Of a stretch of 64,000 bases of DNA, positions 13,365 to 62,492 are shown piece by piece; positions within the stretch are counted from its first letter, which is position 1, and each line of letters starts with the position of its first letter. The stretch spans positions 98,890,001 to 98,954,000 of the forward strand of contig OZ024742.1 of the NCBI GenBank assembly GCA_964016885.1. The letters run 5' to 3'. The stretch is from Eledone cirrhosa. Its lineage: Eukaryota. The position numbers and the translations under genes were made by a program. The notes below the pieces were generated by a model. The model was given only the letters and a program-made list of their open reading frames with translations, was not told the DNA's origin and searched no databases.

Positions 13365-16090
13365 CACCAGGGCATCAAAGAGTGGGACAAGTACAATGGG
13401 GGGGGGGGGTTACATAAAAAGGTGTCCTCAATAAGGAGGAGGCAATAACAAAATATAAAAATATAAAAATATAAAATATAACAAAAATAAATTGAATAAC
13501 AAAATCCTCAATAGGGATGGGGCGCCTTGGAGGGCCGCACACACCCGCGAAAAAAGTGTGCAACCCTTTTCCTCGGGAGAGAGGGTGCTCCCTTGATCTT
13601 TTATCTTTCTCACTTACAGTCTGATGCCATTCTCGCCACTTTCACCCATCTTTCATAAAAGCGGCTGGGGTGCAGCACCTCTCTCTCCATCCTGATCCTT
13701 CTTCCGAAATGATATCGGAAGAAACGGATCAGTTGTTGGCCAGAGAGAAAGGTGTCTGACCTCAGTCCTTTCAGACGCGTCCACCATACAACCTCTTTCA
13801 CCATGGCTATTACGCACAGAAACACCGTCTCTCCTTCATTTTTGAAGAGGGGAGGAGGCTTGATCGTTACAATAAACTCGGTGGTCAACCGGATCGGTCC
13901 CACCCTTGACATCTGTCGTTCGACATAGCCCCACAGGTCGGCAATGCCCGAGCAGTGTACCAATACATGTGCAACGGTTTCCTCGTCGCACACGCATCTG
14001 GGACAGATCTTTTTCGAGGGGTCACTACCCGGGCGCCTGTGTCTGTAGAGCATTTTTCGAACGGGCAGAGTCCCTCGGAAGCACTGCCAGGCCAGGGACC
14101 TCTGGAAGTTATCCATAGGTCCCGGGCTGAATGTCCCCTCGAACGGGTCCGCCTGTCAGAGAGCCGTTAGTGCCTGGGCACACTCTGTGTTCCAGGCGCC
14201 CAGTTTTCTCGGTCTTTGCTTGACCCAGGATTGCAGCTAGGTGAGCGAGACGAGTCAGGGAAAGGCTCGCCTCACGAACGGGGCCCACACCGGTTGAACG
14301 GTGAGGAATACCTGGAGGTGCCGTAGCCTTAATGCGTGTTTACGCATCATCAGCCACGGCATCCCCAGCCCTCCTTTCGAAGGGTGGACAGCAGATGGAT
14401 CTCCTCACATAGGAGCCCGCTTCTTCCAAAGGAATTGGAAGAGTGCGCGCTCCATTTTGGCGAGCGTTTCCCTTCGGCAAGGCACGACGGTCAGGCGGTA
14501 GTAGATGACGGACGCTATATAAGTGTTCGCCAGCTCCGTCCGAACTTTCAGGGACAGTTTGCACTCGGCCCACTTCTGGGTAGTGCAAACTCCCTGTTCG
14601 TTACCTCACCCCAGTTCTTCTCCTCCTGGAGGTCTGGTCCGAACCAGACCCCGAGCAACTTCACCGGGCCCTCCGTCCAGCGCCCGACGACGCCATCGGA
14701 GTGCATCGATTTGCCCATCCACGTTCCGAGTTGCAAACCGATCGACTTGTCCCGGTTTAGCTTAGCCCCTGTAAACCTGTCGTACTCCTCCAGTAAGGTG
14801 CCGATCGCCCCGATTTCCGAGGCCGTCGACACCATTACGGTTACGTCATCGGCGTAGGCGGACACCGCTTTCCGCAATCCCGGTTCCAACGGGATGCCCT
14901 GCAACAACATCAACTTCCGCAACAGTGGCTCTAGCGCCATTACATACAGAAGGGAGAAGAGAGGGCAACCTTGTCGGATGGACCGTGCGATTTCGAACGG
15001 CTCCGAGAGGTAGCCATTCACCTTGACTCTAGAGCAGATGCGGCTGCTGTGCATGGCAGTGATCCAACCCCTGAAAACAGGTCAGAAGCCTGCCGCCGCT
15101 AGCACCGCATCCAGATAACCATGGTCGACCCTATCAAATGCCTTAGATTGATCCAAGTTGATCAGGGCCCCACCAAAGCCGGGTTCGTTCCCAACCCTCT
15201 CTATGATGTATCGCATGAGGTGGAGGTTGTCCTGGATGGACCTCGACGGGATAGCACATGTCTGCCCATCTCCCACCCGGTTGCCCACGACAAGCGCCTA
15301 CCTCTTTGCTAGCACCTTGGCCAACATCTGTAACTCTGTATTTAGCAGAGTTATGGGCCTAAAATTATTTATATCGTCCCCCTTGTTCTCGTCCTTCCTC
15401 ATTAGCGTGACTACGCCCTTGGTCACAGCACAGGGAATCCTCCGGTCCTTTTGCCAGTTGCAGTTTACCGCCTCGAGGAGATCGGGGAACAAGTCCGGCA
15501 TAGCTAGATATAGTTCGTATGGAAGACCATCGAGACCCGGGGATTTTCGTTTGCCGCATTGGCTCAGCACGTTATCTATCTCAGCGGCTGAAATCGGCTC
15601 CTCGCAGGACTTCGCCTCCATGACCGTGAGACGCGGCAGGCCGTCGAGGTATGGACCGAAGTCCACTTCCCCAACCGGCTCCCCGCCCCTTCCGAACAAT
15701 CTGGCAAAGTGCTTTTGAAAAGCCTCGCACATCTGCTTAGGTTCAAGGATCACCCGACCATCCTGGTCTCGCAAAGACCGGATAGTTGATTTACTCCCTC
15801 TTTTGGCTTCTGTCACGCGGGCCCAGCTAACAGCTTTGGTCCCCTCGTTTCCCAGAGCACATATTTTGCTTCGGACGATGCAGCCTTCGTGTTTCGCGTC
15901 GAAGAACTGGCCCAGGGCCGTTCTCGACGCTAGCACTCTGGCCACGTCGCCGCTTCTAATTGCCTCTTCTACACTATCTACCAACTCCCTTTCGTTCCTA
16001 TTTCTATTTGAGGCTAACTCCTTACTAAATTCTATAGAGACTACTGTAATCTCTCTTTTGAGAGATCCCCACCAACTGCTGTTGACGATA
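13365..16090 (-). mobile_element. 5'-truncated L1/Tx1-like LINE (ORF2 RT plus C-terminal CCHC), disrupted
   Basis: KSPGLDGLP, NFRPITLLN, LDQSKAFDRVDH, IRQGCPL, AYADDVT, CPRC...ET..H...C. Frameshifts and an internal deletion relative to the 59.5-62.5 kb copy. Confidence 0.9.
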
Positions 16091-16890
16091 GAATGGTAGC
16101 GTCAATACTAAGAGTAGACAGTTTTTTCACCACAAGTTTTGGAGGAGTGATATTTCTCAGCAAAATAACTGGCGTTCCCTCTTTCAGAACCAATGTATTA
16201 GGAGGTAAACCGGGAGGATTTAAAGAATTTAGAAATTCAACTGGATAATTGAGCGCATCCTGTGGATCACATATAGAATCAATAGATTTATATATCCGTG
16301 GACATCCAGGAAGAAGCTGAGGAATTTGATCGTTAATACAGCTAACCGTGATATTTTTGGGTGCAAGAATGGCTCTTTCAGTTAGCCAATCAAGATTCGT
16401 ATAGTTATCACGCAAGTTAGGGAATACAGTCGCCTTGAGATCATCGACAGTTTCAACTACATTGCAGATGTGGTCAATTGCTATGTGTCCATCTGTATCC
16501 GGAGGTAAGTTACCATCTCCTATTGTAAGCATATCTCCAGAAAATACTGATGACAGAGGGTCCCCATGCAATCTTGCACGCATGTCGGTAATTAGTCTTA
16601 ATGATGTCACTTGTCTCCACAATCGCTCTTCAGTAGGCAGCGGTTGCAGTGATCCAATGAGATGATACACCTGGCCCTGTACTTTGAAAGTCAGCATAAA
16701 TCCATCTTTCTTCAGACGTTTTGCACCGAAAGAGGTCATTTGAAACGCAATGTTGTACTGTCGGATATGCTTCAGAAAATCACGTGATTGTGAATGTTTA
16801 CCTGTTAGAAGCATCTGGAGAGGTTGCGGTGGTTCCCTAAGGGTGGGCAAATTAACCTTACCATTGGAGTAGCACATTGCAGCTGATTCT
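16091..16890 (-). mobile_element. Helitron RepHel fragment with internal deletion
   Basis: N-terminal Helitron motifs (GKVNLP...FLKHIRQYN.AFQMTSFG...FKVQGQVYH.IGSL) are fused in frame to Pif1-like helicase C-terminal motifs (L..DMR, ERAILAPKN, YPVEFLNSL.PPGLP, L.LK.G.PVILLRN). Confidence 0.85.
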
Positions 16891-17456: not shown

Positions 17457-17497
<41 letters not shown>

Positions 17498-17503
<6 letters not shown>

Positions 17504-20500
17504 AAGTGAGTCCTTCATCAGTGACCCTCCAACCGTCCTCGGCATTTCATCGCTTTAAGGGCCATATGCCTCAGGTTGGTGCGAACAACGGCTAAAAAAA
17601 GTCGTTGGGACACGTAAATAAAGGGGGACGCTAGAGTAACAACAAAGGGGTTTAAGCAACGGAAAGTGAGTAGAAATAGACAAGTCCCAGATCTATATGG
17701 CCCTTAAAGCGATGAAATGCCGAGGACGGTTGGAGGGTCACTGATGAAGGACTCACTTTTTCATATGTATCCCATTTGCAACGCCGCAGCTCCATTATTA
17801 TCATCATATTTACACATATTACTTTTCCATACTGCCTGTCTGTTTCGTTCCTTGTATCTTTACCACTTCTAGCAGTCTCCCTCACTGTTATTCTCTCCTC
17901 AACTTTCACTCACTCATTCTCTGTCACTACCTCTCCTCCTCCTCTTTCCTCCTCCTCCTTCAAGTTTGACCTGTGTGTAATTCTTTTCTCGCGCAGTCTT
18001 GACCGAGCTGGTATGGAATTTTTTTCTCTCTCTCTTTCGTCGGCGACTTCACAAAACTTGCGTTTACCGAATTCGTAGACCAGACGACTTTATCTTCTTC
18101 TTCTTCTTCTTCTTCTTCCTCTTCTCTCCTTTTTCTTTCTCTCTCTCTCTCTTTTTTCCCCCCCGTCAAACTTGGGCGAAATTCTTTCCTTGCTCACATT
18201 TCTACCAGGTTCGATGGTCTTTCGTCTCTTGTTCACGATTTCACAGAGTTTATATTCATAGAGATCTGGGACTTGTCTATTTCTACTCACTTTCCGTTGC
18301 TTAAACCCCTTTGTTGTTACTCTAGCGTCCCCCTTTATTTACGTGTCCCAACGACTTTTTTTAGCCGTTGTTCGCACCAACCTGAGGCATATGGCCCTTA
18401 AAGCGATGAAATGCCGAGGACGGTTGGAGGGTCACTGATGAAGGACTCACTTTTTCATATGTATCCCATTTGCAACGCCGCAGCTCCATTATTATCATCA
18501 TATTTACACATATTACTTTTCCATGCTGCCTGTCTGTTTCGTTCCTTGTATCTTTACCACTTCTAGCAGTCTCCCTCTCTGTTACTCTCTCCTCAACTTT
18601 CACTCACTCATTCTCTGTCACTACCTCTCCTCCTCCTCTTTCCTCCTCCTCCTTCAAGTTTGACCTGTGTGTAATTCTTTTCTCGCGCAGTCTTGACCGA
18701 GCTGGTATGGAATTTTTTTCTCTCTCTCTTTCGTCTGCGACTTCACAAAACTTGCGTTTACCGTATTCGTAGACCAGACGACTTTATCTTCTTCTTCTTC
18801 TTCTTCTTCTTCTTCTTCTTCTTCTTCTTCTTCTTCTTCTTCTTCTTCTTCTTCTTCCTCTTCTCTCCTTTTTCTTTCTCTCTCTCTCTCTTTTTTCCCC
18901 CCCGTCAAACTTGGGCGAAATTCTTTCCTTGCTCACATTTCTACCAGGTTCGATGGTCTTTCGTCTCTTGTTCACGATTTCACAGAGTTTATATTCATAG
19001 AGATCTGGGACTTGTCTATTTCTACTCACTTTCCGTTGCTTAAACCCCTTTGTTGTTACTCTAGCGTCCCCCTTTATTTACGTGTCCCAACGACTTTTTT
19101 TAGCCGTTGTTCGCACCAACCTAAGGCATATGGCCCTTAAAGCGATGAAATGCCGAGGACGGTTGGAGGGTCACTGATGAAGGACTCACTTTTTCATATG
19201 TATCCCATTTGCAACGCCGCAGCTCCATTATTATCATCATATTTACACATATTACTTTTCCATGTTGCCTGTCTGTTTCGTTCCTTGTATCTTTACCACT
19301 TCTAGCAGTCTCCCTCTCTGTTACTCTCTCCTCAACTTTCACTCACTCATTCTCTGTCACTACCTCTCCTCCTCCTCTTTCCTCCTCCTCCTTCAAGTTT
19401 GACCTGTGTGTAATTCTTTTCTCGCGCAGTCTTGACCGAGCTGGTATGGAATTTTTTTCTCTCTCTCTTTCGTCTGCGACTTCACAAAACTTGCGTTTAC
19501 CGAATTCGTAGACCAGACGACTTTATCTTCTTCTTCTTCTTCTTCTTCTTCTTCTTCTTCTTCTTCTTCTTCTTCTTCTTCTTCTTCTTCTTCTTCTTCT
19601 TCTTCTTCTTCTTCTTCCTCTTCTCTCCTTTTTCTTTCTCTCTCTCTCTCTTTTTTCCCCCCCGTCAAACTTGGGCGAAATTCTTTCCTTGCTCACATTT
19701 CTACCAGGTTCGATAGTCTTTCGTCTCTTGTTCACGATTTCACAGAGTTTATATTCATAGAGATCTGGGACTTGTCTATTTCTACTCACTTTCCGTTGCT
19801 TAAACCCCTTTGTTGTTACTCTAGCGTCCCCCTTTATTTACGTGTCCCAACGACTTTTTTTAGCCGTTGTTCGCACCAACCTGAGGCATATGGCCCTTAA
19901 AGCGATGAAATGCCGAGGACGGTTGGAGGGTCACTGATGAAGGACTCACTTTTTCATATGTATCCCATTTGCAACGCCGCAGCTCCATTATTATCATCAT
20001 ATTTACACATATTACTTTTCCATGTTGCCTGTCTGTTTCGTTCCTTGTATCTTTACCACTTCTAGCAGTCTCCCTCTCTGTTACTCTCTCCTCAACTTTC
20101 ACTCACTCATTCTCTGTCACTACCTCTCCTCCTCCTCTTTCCTCCTCCTCCTTCAAGTTTGACCTGTGTGTAATTCTTTTCTCGCGCAGTCTTGACCGAG
20201 CTGGTATGGAATTTTTTTCTCTCTCTCTTTCGTCTGCGACTTCACAAAACTTGCGTTTACCGTATTCGTAGACCAGACGACTTTATCTTCTTCTTCTTCT
20301 TCTTCTTCTTCTTCTTCTTCTTCTTCTTCTTCTTCTTCTTCTTCTTCTTCTTCTTCCTCTTCTCTCCTTTTTCTTTCTCTCTCTCTCTCTTTTTTCCCCC
20401 CCGTCAAACTTGGGCGAAATTCTTTCCTTGCTCACATTTCTACCAGGTTCGATGGTCTTTCGTCTCTTGTTCACGATTTCACAGAGTTTATATTCATAGA

Positions 20501-22972
20501 GATCTGGGACTTGTCTATTTCTACTCACTTTCCGTTGCTTAAACCCCTTTGTTGTTACTCTAGCGTCCCCCTTTATTTACGTGTCCCAACGACTTTTTTT
20601 AGCCGTTGTTCGCACCAACCTAAGGCATATGGCCCTTAAAGCGATGAAATGCCGAGGACGGTTGGAGGGTCACTGATGAAGGACTCACTTTTTCATATGT
20701 ATCCCATTTGCAACGCCGCAGCTCCATTATTATCATCATATTTACACATATTACTTTTCCATGTTGCCTGTCTGTTTCGTTCCTTGTATCTTTACCACTT
20801 CTAGCAGTCTCCCTCTCTGTTACTCTCTCCTCAACTTTCACTCACTCATTCTCTGTCACTACCTCTCCTCCTCCTCTTTCCTCCTCCTCCTTCAAGTTTG
20901 ACCTGTGTGTAATTCTTTTCTCGCGCAGTCTTGACCGAGCTGGTATGGAATTTTTTTCTCTCTCTCTTTCGTCTGCGACTTCACAAAACTTGCGTTTACC
21001 GAATTCGTAGACCAGACGACTTTATCTTCTTCTTCTTCTTCTTCTTCTTCTTCTTCTTCTTCTTCTTCTTCTTCTTCTTCTTCTTCTTCTTCTTCTTCTT
21101 CTTCTTCTTCTTCTTCTTCCTCTTCTCTCCTTTTTCTTTCTCTCTCTCTCTCTTTTTTCCCCCCCGTCAAACTTGGGCGAAATTCTTTCCTTGCTCACAT
21201 TTCTACCAGGTTCGATAGTCTTTCGTCTCTTGTTCACGATTTCACAGAGTTTATATTCATAGAGATCTGGGACTTGTCTATTTCTACTCACTTTCCGTTG
21301 CTTAAACCCCTTTGTTGTTACTCTAGCGTCCCCCTTTATTTACGTGTCCCAACGACTTTTTTTAGCCGTTGTTCGCACCAACCTGAGGCATATGGCCCTT
21401 AAAGCGATGAAATGCCGAGGACGGTTGGAGGGTCACTGATGAAGGACTCACTTTTTCATATGTATCCCATTTGCAACGCCGCAGCTCCATTATTATCATC
21501 ATATTTACACATATTACTTTTCCATGTTGCCTGTCTGTTTCGTTCCTTGTATCTTTACCACTTCTAGCAGTCTCCCTCTCTGTTACTCTCTCCTCAACTT
21601 TCACTCACTCATTCTCTGTCACTACCTCTCCTCCTCCTCTTTCCTCCTCCTCCTTAAAGTTTGACCTGTGTGTAATTCTTTTCTCGCGCAGTCTTGACCG
21701 AGCTGGTATGGAATTTTTTTCTCTCTCTCTTTCGTCTGCGACTTCACAAAACTTGCGTTTACCGAATTCGTAGACCAGACCACTTTATCTTCTTCTTCTT
21801 CTTCTTCTTCTTCTTCTTCTTCTTCTTCTTCCTCTTCTCTCCTTTTTTCTTTCTCTCTCTCTCTCTCTTTTTTCCCCCACGTCAAACTTGGGCGAAATTC
21901 TTTCCTTGCTCACATTTCTACCAGGTTCGATGGTCTTTCGTCTCTTGTTCACGATTTCACAGAGTTTATATTCATAGAGATCTGGGACTTGTCTATTTCT
22001 ACTCACTTTCCGTTGCTTAAACCCCTTTGTTATTACTCTAGCGTCCCCCTTTATTTACGTGTCCCAACGACTTTTTTTAGCCGTTGTTCGCACCAACCTG
22101 AGGCATATGGCCCTTAAAGCGATGAAATGCCGAGGACGGTTGGAGGGTCACTGATGAAGGACTCACTTTTTCATATGTATCCCATTTGCAACGCCGCAGC
22201 TCCATTATTATCATCATATTTACACATATTACTTTTCCATGCTGCCTGTCTGTTTCGTTCCTTGTATCTTTACCACTTCTAGCAGTCTCCCTCTCTGTTA
22301 CTCTCTCCTCAACTTTCACTCACTCATTCTCTGTCACTACCTCTCCTCCTCCTCTTTCCTCCTCCACCTTCAAGTTTGACCTGTGTGTAATTCTTTTCTC
22401 GCGCAGTCTTGACCGAGCTGGTATGGAATTTTTTTCTCTCTCTCTTTCGTCTGCGACTTCACAAAACTTGCGTTTACCGAATTCGTAGACCAGACGACTT
22501 TATCTTCTTCTTCTTCTTCTTCTTCTTCTTCTTCTTCTTCTTCTTCTTCTTCTTCTTCTTCTTCTTCTTCTTCTTCTTCTTCTTCTTCTTCTTCCTCTTC
22601 TCTCCTTTTTCTTTCTCTCTCTCTCTCTTTTTTCCCCCCCGTCAAACTTGGGCGAAATTCTTTCCTTGCTCACATTTCTACCAGGTTCGATGGTCTTTCG
22701 TCTCTTGTTCACGATTTCACAGAGTTTATATTCATAGAGATCTGGGACTTGTCTATTTCTACTCACTTTCCGTTGCTTAAACCCCTTTGTTGTTACTCTA
22801 GCGTCCCCCTTTATTTACGTGTCCCAACGACTTTTTTTAGCCGTTGTTCGCACCAACCTGAGGCACATGGCCCTTAAAGCGATGAAATGCCGAGGACGGT
22901 TGGAGGGTCACTGATGAAGGACTCACTTTTTCATATGTATCCCATTTGCAACGCCGCAGCTCCATTATTATC

Positions 22973-22974
<2 letters not shown>
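17498..22974 (+). repeat. Tandem array of a ~0.7 kb non-coding unit with internal (TTC)n and a 5' inverted partial copy; retrozyme/PLE-like
   Basis: Units start at 17698, 18392, 19131, 19891, 20630, 21393, 22108 and 22868 (lengths 694, 739, 760, 739, 763, 715, 760). 17498-17694 is the reverse complement of the unit-junction region. (TA)n flanks both sides. Confidence 0.95.
18377..18474 (+). ncRNA. Candidate hammerhead ribozyme with reversed strand order and a kink-turn (representative copy; recurs at each unit junction)
   Basis: ccaacc-tga-ggca-TA|tggccct-taaa-gcga-t-GAAA-tgcc-gag-ga-c-ggttgg-agggtca-CTGATGA-a... Stems I and III pair in exact hammerhead register, with covariation against the 33247-33345 copy. 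Confidence 0.65.
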
Positions 22975-23034
<60 letters not shown>

Positions 23035-33204: not shown

Positions 33205-33811
33205 AAACGATATATAAACATGAGAAGAAAGAAGAATACTGCGTGGTTGCAAATGGGTTACATATGATAAAGATTGTCCTTCGTCAGTGACTTTCCAACC
33301 ATCATTGGTAATTCATCGCATTAAAAATCCGATACCTCAGGTTGGTGCGAGCAATAAGGAAAAAAAGTTATTGGGACCAGTAATTCGCGTAAAGCGAGGG
33401 GGACAAATAAACAACATAGAAGGATATAAGCAAACCGAAGATAGGAAAATAAACAAGCAACATGGTTGTCCGGTCAGCATAAGCTCGGTAGATTTCATGA
33501 GCGAGAGTTACAAACTGTCCGATGTGTGTGAGATGTAAGCAAGAAGAGACCCACTACAAGCCAAACGGGCGGAAGTGAGAAGGGGAGAAACAGAGAGTGA
33601 GTGAGTGGAAGTGTGAGGAAGAGGTCAGTCGAGAGAAAGTGTAACTGACGGAGGGGGCGAAAGAAGGTGAGAGAAACAGAGAGAGCGGGGAAGCAGTAAG
33701 AGAGAAACAGACAAACGCAGCCGAGGTAAATATATATAAAAAAACATGAGAAGAAAGAAGAATACTGCGTGGTTGCAAATGGGTTACATTTGATAAAATA
33801 GTCCTTCGTCA

Positions 33812-33875
<64 letters not shown>

Positions 33876-38544: not shown

Positions 38545-41572
<3,028 letters not shown>

Positions 41573-52114: not shown

Positions 52115-54069
<1,955 letters not shown>

Positions 54070-59498: not shown

Positions 59499-62492
59499 CC
59501 ACCAGGGCATCAAAGATTGGAACACATACAAAGGGGGGGAGTTTACATACATTTAAAAAGACGTGTAAAAAACATATAACAAATTAAATTTAACAATCGA
59601 TGTCCTCAATAGGGAGGGGCGTTGACATGGGTCGCACACACCCCCGAAAAAATGTGCAACGCTCCTCTTCAGGAGCACAAAGAGCGGGTGCTTCCTTCCT
59701 CTCCTCATTCTTCTCCTCTCTCACCTACAGGCTGATATAGAGAGAAGGCCCATTCACTCGGGCCATTCTCGCTACTTTCACCCATCTTTCATAAAACTTG
59801 CTGGGGTAGAGCACCCCTCTCTCCATTCTGATCCTTCTTCTAAAGTGGTACTTGAAAAAAAAGACCAGTTGTTGGCCGGAGAGATAGGTGTCTGACCTCA
59901 GCCCTTTCAACCTTGTCCACCATACAACTTCTTTCGCCATGGCTATCACACAGAGGAAAACCGCCTCTCCTTCGTTTTTGAAAGGAGGAGGCGGTTTGAT
60001 TGTGACAATGTTCTCGGTGGTCAACCGGATTGGTCCCACCCGCGACAGTAGTCGTTCTACATAGCCCCACAGGTCAGCAACGCCCGGGCAGTGTACGAAT
60101 GCGTGTGCGACGGTTTCCTCGTCACGCACGCATCTTGGACAGATCTTCTTCGAGGGGTCCCTACCCGGGCGCCCGTGTCTGTAGAGCTTGTCCCGAACGG
60201 GTAGAGCTCCTCGGTAACATTGCCAAGCCAGGGACTTTTGGAAGTTGTCAATCGGTCCCGGGCCAAACGTCCAACCGAACAGACTGGCCAGCTCGTCTTC
60301 CTCCATGCCCAGAGCCTGTCCGAGAGCGTCGTCGCACTTACTGCGCACCAACCCTCTATAGAATGTTGAGGTTGAGTCTCCACTGATTGCCGGATCCGCT
60401 TGCCAGAGGGCCGTGAGCGCCTGGGCACATTCAATGTGCCAGTCGCCCATTTTTCTCGGTCTTTGCTTGACCCAGGATTGCAGCTCGGTGAGTGAGACGA
60501 GTCTCGGAAAGGCTCGCCTCACAAACAGGGCCCACACCGGCTGACCGGTGAGGAATACCTGGAGGTGCCGTAGCCTTAATGCGTGTCTACGCATCGTCAG
60601 CCACGGCCCCCCAGCCCTCCGTTCGAAGGGTGTTGACAGCAGATGGATCTTCTCACCAAAGGAGCCCGCTTCTTCCAAAGAAATCGGAAGAGCGCGCGCT
60701 CCATTTTGGCGAGTGTTTTCTCTGGGCAAGGCACGACGGTCAAGCGGTAGTAGATGACGGACGCTATATAAGCGTTCGCCACCTCCGCTCGACCTTTCAG
60801 GGATAGTTTGCACTCGGCCCACTTCTGGGCGAGTGCAAACACCTTGCCCGTTATCTCGTCCCAGTTTTTCTCCACCTGGAGGTCCGGTCCGAACCAGACC
60901 CCGAGCAGCTTCACCGGTCTCTCCGTCCAGCGTCCGACGATGCCGTCGGAGGGCATCGTTTTGCCCCTCCACGTCCCGAGTTGCAAACCGACGGACTTGT
61001 CCCGGTTCAGCTTGGCTCCTGTGAACCTTTCATATTCCTCCAGTAAGGTGCCGATCTGCCCGATTTCCGAGGCGCACGACACCATTACTGTCACGTCATC
61101 GGCGTAGGCCGACACCGCTTTCCGCAATCCCGATTCCAAGGGGATGCCCTGCAACAGCTCCAGCTTCCTCAGTAGTGGCTCGAGAGCCAGCACATACAGG
61201 AGCGAGGAGAGAGGGCATCCCTGTCGAATGGATCGCGTGATTTGGAACGGCTCCGAGAGGTAGCCGTTCACCTTGACCCTCGAGCAGGTGTTGCTGCTGT
61301 GCATTGCAGCAATCCAGCCCCTGAAAACGGGTTCGAAGCCTGCCGCCGCGAGCACCGCATCCAGGTACCGATGGTCAACCCTATCGAACGCTTTAGATTG
61401 ATCCAAGTTGATCAGGGCCCCACCAAAGCCGGGTTCGTTCCCTACCCTCTCTACGATGTATCGCATGAGGTGGAGGTTGTCGTGTATGGACCTGGACGGG
61501 ATTGCGCATGTCTGCGCTTCTCCCACCAGGTTCCCGACGACAAGCGCCAACCTCTTCGCTAACACCTTGGCCAAAATCTTTAACTCTGTGTTTAGCAGAG
61601 TTATGGGCCTGAAGTTATCTATGTCATCCCCCTTGTTCTCGTCCTTCCTCACCAGCGTGACTACGCCCTTGGTCACAGAACTGGGAATTCTCCCGTTCTG
61701 TTGCCAGTTGCAGTAGACCGCCTCGAGGAGACCGGAGAACAAGCCCGGCATCGCTACATAAAGTTCGTATGGTAGACCATCGAGACCCGGAGATTTGCGT
61801 TTGCCGCATTGGCTCAGCGCTTTCCCTATTTCAGCGGCTGAAATCGGCCTCTCGCAGGACTTCGCCTCCCTGTCCGAGAGCCGCGCCAGACCGTCGAGGT
61901 ATGGACGAAATCCATGGCCCCACCCGGCCCGCCGCCCCTCCCGAACAGTCGTGCAAAGCGCCGTTGAAAGGCCGCGCTCATCCGCTCAGGTTCAAGGTTC
62001 ACGCGTCCATCCTGGTCCTTCAAAGACCGAATCGTGGACTTGTTTCCACTTTTTGCCTCTGTCACTCGGGCCCAGCTAACAGCTTTGGCTCCCTCGTTAC
62101 CCAGAGCACGTATTTTACTCCTGACAACGCAGCCCTCGTGCTTCGCATCAAAGAACTGGTCTAGGGCCGTTCTTGACGCCATCACGCCGGCCACTCCTAA
62201 TCGCCTCTTCTACTCTATTTGTTAATTCCCTTTCAGTTCTATTCCTATCTGATGCTAATTCCCGACTAAAACCTATCGATTCTATTCTAATTTCTCTCTT
62301 GAAAGAGCCCCACCACCTCCTGTTGACAATTGCCCCCGTCAAACGCTGCTTAACTAGTGTGCTAATCCGCTTACTGTAAGCTTTGTTTGTCGGTAAAGAC
62401 AAGTCTAGCTTCCAGTAACCGGGTCCCTGTCTATGAGTTCTATCAAGGTTGACCACTCCGGTCAATAACTTGTGATCCGAATAGTCAACCAT
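59499..62492 (-). mobile_element. 5'-truncated L1/Tx1-like LINE ORF2 (end of APE, RT, CCHC), frameshifted
   Basis: YSDHK...GPGYWKL, NFRPITLLN, KAFDRVDH, RQGCPLS, YADDV, CPRC..H..C. The 3' end caccagggcatcaaag is shared with 13365. Confidence 0.92.

Follow-up and report, generated by a model that had tools for sequence, protein, structure and literature searches.

A predicted non-circularly permuted hammerhead in a young tandem element of Eledone cirrhosa, probably a retrozyme of Naiad-type Penelope-like descent

Hammerhead ribozymes with a non-circular permutation of their conserved blocks were described in a 2023 report which, in the parts available (PMC10085705), relied on metatranscriptomes only, with the host unknown and with folding and origin left open. 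In particular, its type-SGC hammerheads (HRIMA-1 and variants) were sourced from assembled metatranscriptomes only. On the side of the mobile elements, the accessible portions of PMC8557442 report Naiads to be without canonical hammerheads, marking only "HHR_core" or "HHR_half_core", and this lack was read as evidence that Penelope-like elements can do without the ribozyme.

The window analysed here is a stretch of 64,000 nucleotides from Eledone cirrhosa (contig OZ024742.1, positions 98,890,001 to 98,954,000), and it contains a tandem array. Quite likely, this array represents a single insertion of a young retrozyme that is non-coding and non-autonomous and has arisen from the 3' end of a Naiad-type Penelope-like element; it would bear a permuted hammerhead and probably be copied from circular RNA.

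Array anatomy and the domain at its unit junctions

An earlier note on this DNA had described seven near-identical units plus a partial one, an inverted 5' copy, (TA)n on both flanks and a variable internal (TTC)n. All of this is confirmed, with units of 694-763 nt (window coordinates):

17460..17499, no strand, (TA)n target tract of the left flank
17498..17694, minus, inverted, 5'-truncated copy, which stops at the short 3' end with no tail
17695..18388, plus, unit 1 (694 nt; 8 TTC triplets)
18389..19127, plus, unit 2 (739 nt; 23 TTC triplets, tract near 18787-18876)
19128..19887, plus, unit 3 (760 nt; 30 TTC triplets)
19888..20626, plus, unit 4 (739 nt; 23 TTC triplets; 1 substitution relative to unit 2)
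20627..21389, plus, unit 5 (763 nt; 31 TTC triplets; 0 substitutions relative to unit 3)
21390..22104, plus, unit 6 (715 nt; 14 TTC triplets)
22105..22864, plus, unit 7 (760 nt; 30 TTC triplets)
22865..22974, plus, partial terminal unit (usual 3' end of the family at about 22934-22936)
22937..22974, plus, 38-nt extension ("tail") at this array end only (compare the tail in the available text of Craig et al. 2021)
22975..23034, no strand, (TA)n target tract of the right flank

The inverted copy corresponds to unit positions ~613-739 and 1-70. With the (TTC)n tract masked, the seven units differ by 0-11 substitutions, and the tract itself ranges from 8 to 31 triplets inside this one array. The near-identical pairs are units 2 and 4 and units 3 and 5 (a dimer periodicity), which indicates duplication at the DNA level (or in the assembly), so that reverse transcription is not the source of all units. 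Frames free of stops reach 120-155 aa but have no coding appearance, and neither of the two tested matched Pfam, in line with the non-coding character claimed earlier. In run X6 (contig-type data, with no strand or end information) the array appears at a depth of ~2, too low to count.

The motif at the junctions is very probably a hammerhead maintained by selection, all the hammerhead core nucleotides being found. Its blocks follow the non-circular sequence S-G-C, with the cleavage site first, GAAA second and CUGAnGA third. Its features, located at junction 1 by descriptor and covariation, and its other copies are as follows:

18345..18446, plus, SGC domain of junction 1
18345-48/18443-46, plus, leader helix P-a
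18349-56/18363-70, plus, hairpin H0
18372-75/18403-06, plus, helix P-b
18377-82/18422-27, plus, stem III extension
18383-85/18416-21, plus, k-turn-like loop
18386-90/18411-15, plus, stem III
18389-91, plus, cleavage triplet AUA
18392-98/18428-34, plus, stem I
18408-11, plus, GAAA
18435-41, plus, CUGAUGA
18442/18407, plus, pair 10.1-11.1
19084..19185, plus, SGC domain of junction 2 (H17 at 19130; G-to-A in the k-turn-like loop)
19844..19945, plus, SGC domain of junction 3 (H17 at 19890)
20583..20684, plus, SGC domain of junction 4 (H17 at 20629; same loop change as at junction 2)
21346..21447, plus, SGC domain of junction 5 (H17 at 21392)
22061..22162, plus, SGC domain of junction 6 (H17 at 22107)
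22821..22922, plus, last SGC domain (C in place of U16.1, at 22866)
17510..17611, minus, complete SGC domain inside the inverted copy (H17 at 17565; limits set by offset)

Cleavage is predicted after AUA (18391 at junction 1), and the domain would probably cleave itself in vitro. The last domain failed the descriptor because of its U16.1 change and is predicted to be inactive. Unit 1 starts with the bases of the cleavage triplet itself (17695-17697), without the leader and without the 5' strand of stem III.

Stem II of the domain consists of one canonical, covarying pair (10.1-11.1), after which both strands pair with the 5' leader (P-a and P-b). Since the published SGC descriptor specifies a stem II of G-C plus at least two more pairs between blocks C and G, it is left unmatched here. 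The leader contributes four covarying helices (P-a, hairpin H0, P-b and the kinked stem III extension). These would stand in for a normal stem II and connect the three arms at their far ends through a second junction, and it is presumably with their help that the scrambled block order can fold. The published helix that ties stems I and II together on their other sides is absent here in that form, the arm ends being joined instead by P-b and the stem III extension.

In the consensus k-turn, a 3-nt bulge is followed by tandem G.A pairs, between two helices. Of 98 copies from families A-G, J and others, 92-97 keep G and A on each strand of the k-turn-like loop, one of the GAs being fixed by the G+C fetch pattern. 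In family H the G.A pairs are swapped for Watson-Crick pairs and the bulge is retained.

Conservation, dispersal and related families

Covariation was assessed in 25 family representatives, picked by hand from the 112 of 227 anchored matches that passed a stem I/III filter. Both sides change in a compensatory manner in 23 of the 35 proposed pairs (6/7 in stem I and 3/5 in stem III) and 94.4% of the cells are paired; none of 500 shuffles was as good, and slid controls reached 29-46%. In 98 distinct copies taken with no pairing filter, the helices are 94-97% paired (stems I and III 95-96%) and the core positions are 96-100% fixed, except N7 (U or C), figures to be read with the fetch patterns having pre-set some core positions and related copies being counted many times, in this set as in the 25 rows. 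Additionally, H17 is A in 60 copies, C in 37 and U in one (never G), and A15.1-U16.1 is found in 93. Pair 10.1-11.1 is formed in 95 of the 98 (A-U 69, G-U 11, U-A 8, G-C 7) and shifted between families as predicted beforehand. Block C was found at a fixed distance, although the S+G pattern had left it unspecified. When the motif was folded with pseudoknots disallowed, it did no better than shuffles (z -1.3 to +0.1), which is what a pseudoknotted fold would lead one to expect.

Genome-wide, a first look gave 2405 candidate copies, the best 40 of which are 98-100% identical and lie on many contigs. The G+C pattern (GAAA plus CUGAnGA blocks) matched 12,537 times, the S+G pattern 5,332 times and a further variant pattern 407 times, with 0 matches for each reversed control. 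The census that the earlier note had called for thus finds dispersed copies, which disposes of the single-locus satellite that it had set as the opposite case. Besides, its proposal of a Penelope-like insertion anatomy is borne out by 18 distinct insertions that were fetched: among the 17 with a resolved 3' end, 15 have a common short 3' end plus (TA)n; the 5' ends spread over 17 different positions; and four of the 18 have an inverted copy, with a one-sided tail in all four. The array family is therefore young and dispersed; its 3' ends are fixed while its 5' ends vary, a pattern that fits the expectation for target-primed retrotransposition. Units of one array have private variants in common (divergence of 0.70% within and 1.81% between arrays) and, in the array L030, one deletion is repeated in every unit.

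The cleavage site is intact at insertion ends, and junctions ending at it number only four genome-wide. A 5' start at most 3 nt from the site occurs in one of the 18 insertions, the present array, and enrichment of 5' ends there was accordingly dropped as evidence.

The window also holds a second, related family:

33239..33815, minus, decayed copy of family B (unit of ~525 nt)

Only ~145 nt around the ribozyme are common to this copy and the array unit (77%), with compensatory changes present, families A and B having little in common beyond the ribozyme module.

Several searches bear on what the motif is. With the gathering score, Rfam gave no match in the whole window and, by E-value, one unit gave three chance matches only (E 3.2-4.4), none of them a ribozyme. 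No type I (CGS) descriptor match was found within the window; the junction motif has CUGAUGA, yet without GAAA after it in hammerhead order. A six-order descriptor gave seven matches in the whole window, 7/7 of them SGC and all inside the array, 0 of 500 shuffled units with a match and, over 150 loci, SGC in 181 of 185 matches, so that canonical type I-III readings are ruled out. For HDV-like and pistol readings, the rejection was by visual inspection only. The retrozyme-like element of the earlier note therefore stands as regards a dispersed, non-coding, tandem, ribozyme-bearing repeat, with the correction that the ribozyme is not a type I hammerhead, but one assigned to type SGC.

Two alternatives would deny the motif this identity or its activity. 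A twister or other non-hammerhead ribozyme is extremely improbable: the UUAA-N-GCG linker after stem I does resemble the P1-UAA start of a twister, but the loop-4 consensus is missing on either array strand, the Rfam matches include no ribozyme and the hammerhead reading accounts for all the covarying pairs. It is also very improbable, if less so, that the motif is a catalytically dead relic within a SINE or a satellite-like repeat. Core mutations in some copies, including the last unit of the array, would suit such a relic. Against it, the young copies are dispersed with the polarity of retrotransposition, and the module, with compensatory changes, has been preserved across families with unrelated bodies.

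Probable Naiad ancestry, mobilisation and proposed life cycle

The ribozyme module is likely to derive from Naiad. Inspection by eye of the published supplement finds SGC or CSG hammerheads at 11 of the 24 3' ends of Naiads that were read. Among them, Naiad_Obim, Naiad_Ovul, Naiad_EuTe and Naiad-2_Movir show at this end the SGC core together with equivalent leader helices, whereas Naiad_Hcon and Naiad-3_Nbra have the CSG order. In the present genome, nine aligned 3' UTRs of Naiad remnants have the S-G-C order, most of them being off-core at C3 and G8, and an intact ribozyme is absent from the 3' ends of 3 + 20 extended remnants. The unit body shows no similarity to the Naiad remnants.

As for a mobilising partner, a 132-aa piece taken from a single Naiad remnant drew 69 matches, every one of them short or broken (longest open frames up to 236 aa), leaving no intact Naiad among them. 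Of four back-translated Naiad patterns, three gave 0, 0 and 3 chance matches in the genome and the fourth led to three decayed remnants. Because a single piece from a single lineage and four tight patterns made up the search, it could have passed over a different Naiad lineage. At the loci examined, no ORF with N-terminal GIY-YIG and C-terminal RT was found in the unit or upstream of the motif; the autonomous element sought in the earlier note, with the motif beside an RT ORF, did not appear, no Penelope-like ORF being joined to it at L001-L150. Neptune-like fragments at L074 and L104 are separate insertions in a common (TA)n tract.

In the life cycle that we propose, a transcript through the array would be cut after AUA at each junction, giving monomers of ~700-760 nt, and their ligation into circles would regain the cleavage site. 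A Penelope-like endonuclease/reverse transcriptase, supplied in trans, would nick (TA)n, with priming at an AU-rich site ~15 nt (or ~55 nt) beyond the core. Several rounds of copying of the template would then account for the fixed 3' ends and the 5' truncation, as well as for the partial tandems and the inverted copies. That the template is the circle itself is favoured by a narrow margin only; rolling-circle copying fits, since private variants are shared within arrays and the cleavage site is intact at insertion ends.

Both the enzyme and the template of this scheme have rivals. Today's mobilising enzyme may belong to a Neptune-like Penelope element and not to Naiad, which we consider unlikely, but by no means negligible. 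Such an element also occupies (TA)n tracts in this genome, its fragments adjoin several copies, and every Naiad match found is broken, in contrast to the 98-100% identity of family A across the genome. The Neptune-like fragments, however, bear a type I hammerhead of their own (by eye) and, at these loci, the unit is matched only by the nested retrozyme copies themselves. This question bears on the partner alone and leaves our reading otherwise untouched. On the template side, the same SGC fold and Naiad origin could go together with movement of uncut, multimeric read-through transcripts, with long arrays growing by DNA-level duplication and with a slow or blocked ribozyme serving chiefly as an RNA handle for the enzyme. 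We hold this to be improbable, even if the rarity of ends at the cleavage site, the intact sites of inserted copies and the dimer periodicity of the array agree with it. Published SGC ribozymes are also at the slow end (available text of Eckert et al. 2023, PMC10085705), and in a recent test Xenopus retrozyme dimers were without cleavage in 8/9. Nevertheless, the core varies only where hammerhead chemistry allows it (N7 and H17), which indicates selection on catalysis and not only on shape, and private variants characterise each array, including the L030 deletion.

More generally, it seems rather likely that the native ribozymes of the Naiad clade are SGC hammerheads, plus CSG in nematodes, over several animal phyla, with the SGC fold being a closed cage whose three arms are tied together at their far ends by the 5' leader, and that they spawned retrozyme families of more than ten thousand motif copies per genome. 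If Naiads do bear non-circularly permuted hammerheads, their reported lack of hammerheads is explained, and a real role of the ribozyme in the Penelope life cycle would be favoured. The permuted ribozyme would also be placed in animal genomes, where structural studies could draw on thousands of natural variants. As type I-III descriptors are blind to these families, "rare" permutations may rank among the commonest ribozymes in some animal genomes, and type I-based retrozyme surveys would undercount.

Comparison with known systems

The closest autonomous counterparts of the array are Naiad elements. In the available parts of Craig et al. 2021 (PMC8557442), these have, like the array, a preference for (TA)n, partial tandems, an inverted 5'-truncated copy and a 30-40 bp tail at one end. 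They differ from it in that the array unit has no ORF, and cephalopod Naiads are described there as long inactive, in contrast to the young array family. The same text presents the non-autonomous Chlamys elements (e.g. MRC1), which are also Penelope-like derivatives with multicopy head-to-tail insertions, but are green algal and, within those parts, come with no reported ribozyme.

Metazoan non-LTR retrozymes (PMC7229834; 10.64898/2026.07.22.740005) resemble the array in being dispersed, non-coding tandem units with one hammerhead each and in having Penelope-like elements proposed as their movers, and the array unit length falls within the 51-972 bp of Li et al. 2026 (10.64898/2026.07.22.740005). 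Expression as linear and circular RNA of monomer size is a further mark of such retrozymes. Both their definition and the searches for them rest on a type I hammerhead, which the array unit does not have, so that the array family would be missed; here, moreover, the Penelope-like insertion anatomy is directly visible.

The type-SGC hammerheads, as far as the accessible text of PMC10085705 describes them, have in common with the array the S-G-C order, the core of CUGAnGA, GAAA and UH, a pseudoknotted topology and a short stretch that links stem I with the G block. In the published form stem II is regular and the G-to-C linker forms a helix with the 3' tail. In the array, a one-pair stem II is followed by leader helices, and it is the leader with which the G-to-C linker pairs, by way of a kinked helix. 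Finally, the host in our case is a retroelement of an animal genome, with more than 12,000 copies of the motif.

The array and its predicted rearranged hammerhead

The tandem array of family A proved to be as the earlier note had described it, and its coordinates were confirmed: seven units and a partial unit, a 5' inverted copy, (TA)n tracts at both flanks and a variable (TTC)n tract (8-31 triplets), which accounts for the differences in unit length. At one fetched locus (L030) every unit lacks the (TTC)n region and is ~647 nt long, so the tract is dispensable for copying; another (L171) holds ~129-nt sub-repeats in tandem, which are related to a portion of the unit body. Pfam had no match for the two scanned stop-free frames of a unit, Rfam gave none anywhere in the window at gathering score, and its three matches to one array unit were all at chance level.

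Features of the array, of its SGC motif at junction 1 and of a related repeat
17498-17694, minus strand: inverted copy, 5' side of the array
17695-22864, plus strand: seven full units, 694-763 nt each
up to 22974, plus strand: partial terminal unit
18345-48/18443-46, plus strand: leader helix P-a, both-side changes in 2 of 4 pairs
between P-a and P-b, plus strand: hairpin H0, both-side changes in 4 of 8 pairs
18372-75/18403-06, plus strand: leader helix P-b, both-side changes in 2 of 4 pairs
18377-82/18422-27, plus strand: stem III extension (leader and G-to-C linker), both-side changes in 5 of 6 pairs
18386-90/18411-15, plus strand: stem III
18389-91, plus strand: predicted cleavage triplet AUA
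18392-98/18428-34, plus strand: stem I
18435-41, plus strand: core CUGAUGA
33239-33815, minus strand: family B, a diverged relative of the array; partial tandem, unit ~525 nt, between (TA)n tracts

All three hammerhead blocks are present in the array motif, the cleavage site first, then GAAA and last CUGAUGA; types I-III were ruled out, because no GAAA follows CUGAUGA. In Eckert 2023 (PMC10085705), the order cleavage site-GAAA-CUGAnGA is named type SGC. A descriptor for all six block orders matched seven sites in the whole window, all of them SGC and all in the array, where it fails at the truncated first junction and at the last one (U16.1 changed to C at 22866), and none of 500 shuffled array units. 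Across 150 loci it gave 181 SGC against 4 type I (CGS) matches; the latter, canonical, lie at L032, L069, L109 and L136, three of them from one repeat family. Two-block patterns matched 5,332, 12,537 and 407 times in the searched genome, and their reversed controls never.

Stem II of the array motif is a single canonical pair, so that the published SGC descriptor does not match, and both its strands continue into helices with the 5' leader (P-a and P-b). Between stem III and its extension lie a bulge of 3 nt and a pair of G.A oppositions, which we take to match the k-turn consensus. A further SGC family, H (L112-L130), retains the bulge with Watson-Crick pairs instead of G.A, and has a long and perfect H0 and a longer P-b (5 bp); its triplet is GUU or GUC, and a one-nucleotide insertion after A9 is required to form G10.1-C11.1. 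The way in which the helices connect would bring P-b, stem I and the extension together in a second three-way junction, closing the far ends of the three arms. Such a junction would suggest how the far end of stem III is linked back to the other arms, a geometric problem raised in Eckert 2023.

In family B (1854 candidates genome-wide), both stem I and stem III carry compensatory changes, and the copy in the window is altered in the core and in stem I in ways that most family B copies are not. The two families have ~145 nt around the ribozyme in common at 77% and little similarity elsewhere, which makes the ribozyme module the conserved part. Among the first pattern matches, position 11.1 is U, C or A and its partner 10.1 is A or G, G, and U, respectively, an identity predicted from 11.1 before inspection. 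For 25 family representatives, hand-picked from the 112 of 227 anchored hits passing a stem I/III filter, the 35 proposed pairs are 94.4% paired, with both-side changes in 23; 0 of 500 shuffles, which ignore relatedness, reach this level, and slid structures give 29-46%. Because of that selection and of the blindness of the shuffles, the count was repeated with 98 distinct copies that had been selected by two unpaired anchors and not filtered for pairing; their helices are 94-97% paired, and pair 10.1-11.1 forms in 95 (A-U 69, G-U 11, U-A 8, G-C 7). In these copies, obtained with fetch patterns that fixed some core positions, H17 takes any of A, C and U but in no copy G, and within the core only N7 varies. 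The predicted SGC structure is well supported by this comparison.

Dispersal and copying

The genome-wide copy census proposed in the earlier note revealed a young, dispersed family: a 321-nt array piece found 2405 first-look candidates in the genome (3.0 Gb), the best 40 of which, when scored, were 98-100% identical. Thirty fetched loci represent 18 distinct insertions, with the 3' end resolved in 17. Fifteen of these stop at a common point ~15 nt past CUGAUGA, followed by (TA)n; the window array extends 38 nt beyond this stop, and one insertion is interrupted at its 3' side by other sequence. The 5' ends fall at 17 different positions, and four insertions have an inverted copy, the 38-nt extension being one-sided in all four. 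In 48 terminal motifs from several families, the distances from the core to the end form two clusters, at 14-16 nt and 52-66 nt. Target-primed reverse transcription characteristically leaves 3' ends that are fixed and 5' ends that are truncated or inverted. For Naiads, a clade of Penelope-like elements, Craig 2021 (PMC8557442) describes a bias for (TA)n, partial tandem copies, an inverted copy truncated at its 5' side and a tail of 30-40 bp on a single end.

Within an array, the units have private variants in common (mean distance 0.70% within and 1.81% between arrays): one site sets all 7 window units apart from all 27 other units, and at L030 an internally deleted unit is repeated along the array. 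Units 2 and 4 differ by 1 substitution and units 3 and 5 by 0, a near-identity suggesting either that two units were later duplicated together or that the assembly is in error here. The forward strand of the window array starts at the cleavage triplet (17695-17698), at most 3 nt from the predicted cut, as the only one of the 18 insertions to do so. Junctions ending at the cleavage site number only 4 genome-wide, for the families covered by the search pattern, against thousands of motif copies, which argues that copying seldom starts at the 3' end of a cleaved linear monomer; insertion ends lie downstream of an intact cleavage site. Both observations would be explained if the template were a circle, closed again by ligation, on which copying is primed at an internal site and continues over several rounds, the model proposed for retrozymes in Cervera and de la Pena 2020 (PMC7229834). 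Uncut multimers serving as template would also account for the rare cleavage-site ends and for the ends beyond an intact site.

Relation to Naiads and neighbouring elements

Craig 2021 reports Naiads without a canonical hammerhead; 10 of them are labelled 'HHR_core' there and another 8 'HHR_half_core', the second group including the elements of octopus and bobtail squid. We examined 24 of the 54 published Naiad 3' ends, whole or in part, by eye, unscripted and with no shuffle control; on this basis, the SGC core is clear and stems I and III are present in seven (Obim, Ovul, Esco, EuTe, Naiad-3_Chem, Naiad-2_Movir and, by supplement order, Plae or Dcar). As judged by eye, Obim, Ovul, EuTe and Movir-2 also have counterparts of P-a, H0, P-b and the stem III extension that differ in sequence. 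Four nematode Naiads (Parc, by supplement order, Nbra-2, Nbra-3 and Hcon) read by eye as type CSG with full stems, an order with only two known natural sequences in Eckert 2023; the Bfor end gave a weak hammerhead reading, and in 12 of the 24 ends none was recognised by eye.

The earlier note had also envisaged an autonomous partner; searches of the genome gave Naiad remnants only, with 69 matches among 94 candidates to a 132-aa remnant piece and open frames of at most 236 aa. These remnants resemble the published octopus consensus, which makes a cephalopod host probable, and none of 20 extended ones has an intact ribozyme at its end. Nine aligned remnant 3' UTRs keep the S-G-C order, with 5-7 of 7 stem I pairs in eight; this weakly supports the Naiad link, as C3 and G8 of the core are altered in almost all nine.

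Other elements were noted. Penelope-like pieces at 39320-39781 (minus strand, GIY-YIG-like) and 40508-40900 (plus strand, RT-like) lie in opposite orientation and have no Pfam match; their motifs resemble those of the Hydra clade. A 5'-truncated Penelope-like element with a C-terminal GIY-YIG domain (PF01541, E 1.1e-7) at 52115-53029 (minus strand) adjoins (TA)n. A Helitron-like Pif1 helicase piece (PF21530; 16041-16904, minus strand) adjoins LINE RT fragments at 13610-16101, and there is a related LINE at 59725-62209. Two Neptune-like Penelope fragments (L074 1-1340, L104 1100-2580) end in a small type I hammerhead, recognised by eye, and a terminal tail, with retrozyme copies nested in the adjoining (TA)n. 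Related sequence also occurs in runs X3 and X6, whose contigs are assigned to two further organisms; X3 has the stem variants known from families of the searched genome, and X6 has a depth of only ~2.

Comparison with known systems

The array is best read as a retrozyme with a predicted leader-closed SGC hammerhead, probably derived from Naiads. The full texts searched, with few subscription papers among them, contained no description of such an SGC retrozyme, of non-circular hammerheads in Naiads or of a hammerhead with a k-turn in a retrotransposon. According to Eckert 2023, all its rearranged hammerheads come from metatranscriptomes, and its supplement mentions neither Octopus nor Mollusca nor Metazoa. 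The retrozyme-like character claimed in the earlier note holds for the array's predicted working, which is that of a non-LTR retrozyme, yet not for the type I hammerhead that defines those elements, the block order being SGC. From the published type SGC hammerhead the array motif differs in its stem II, but it has the same order and core.
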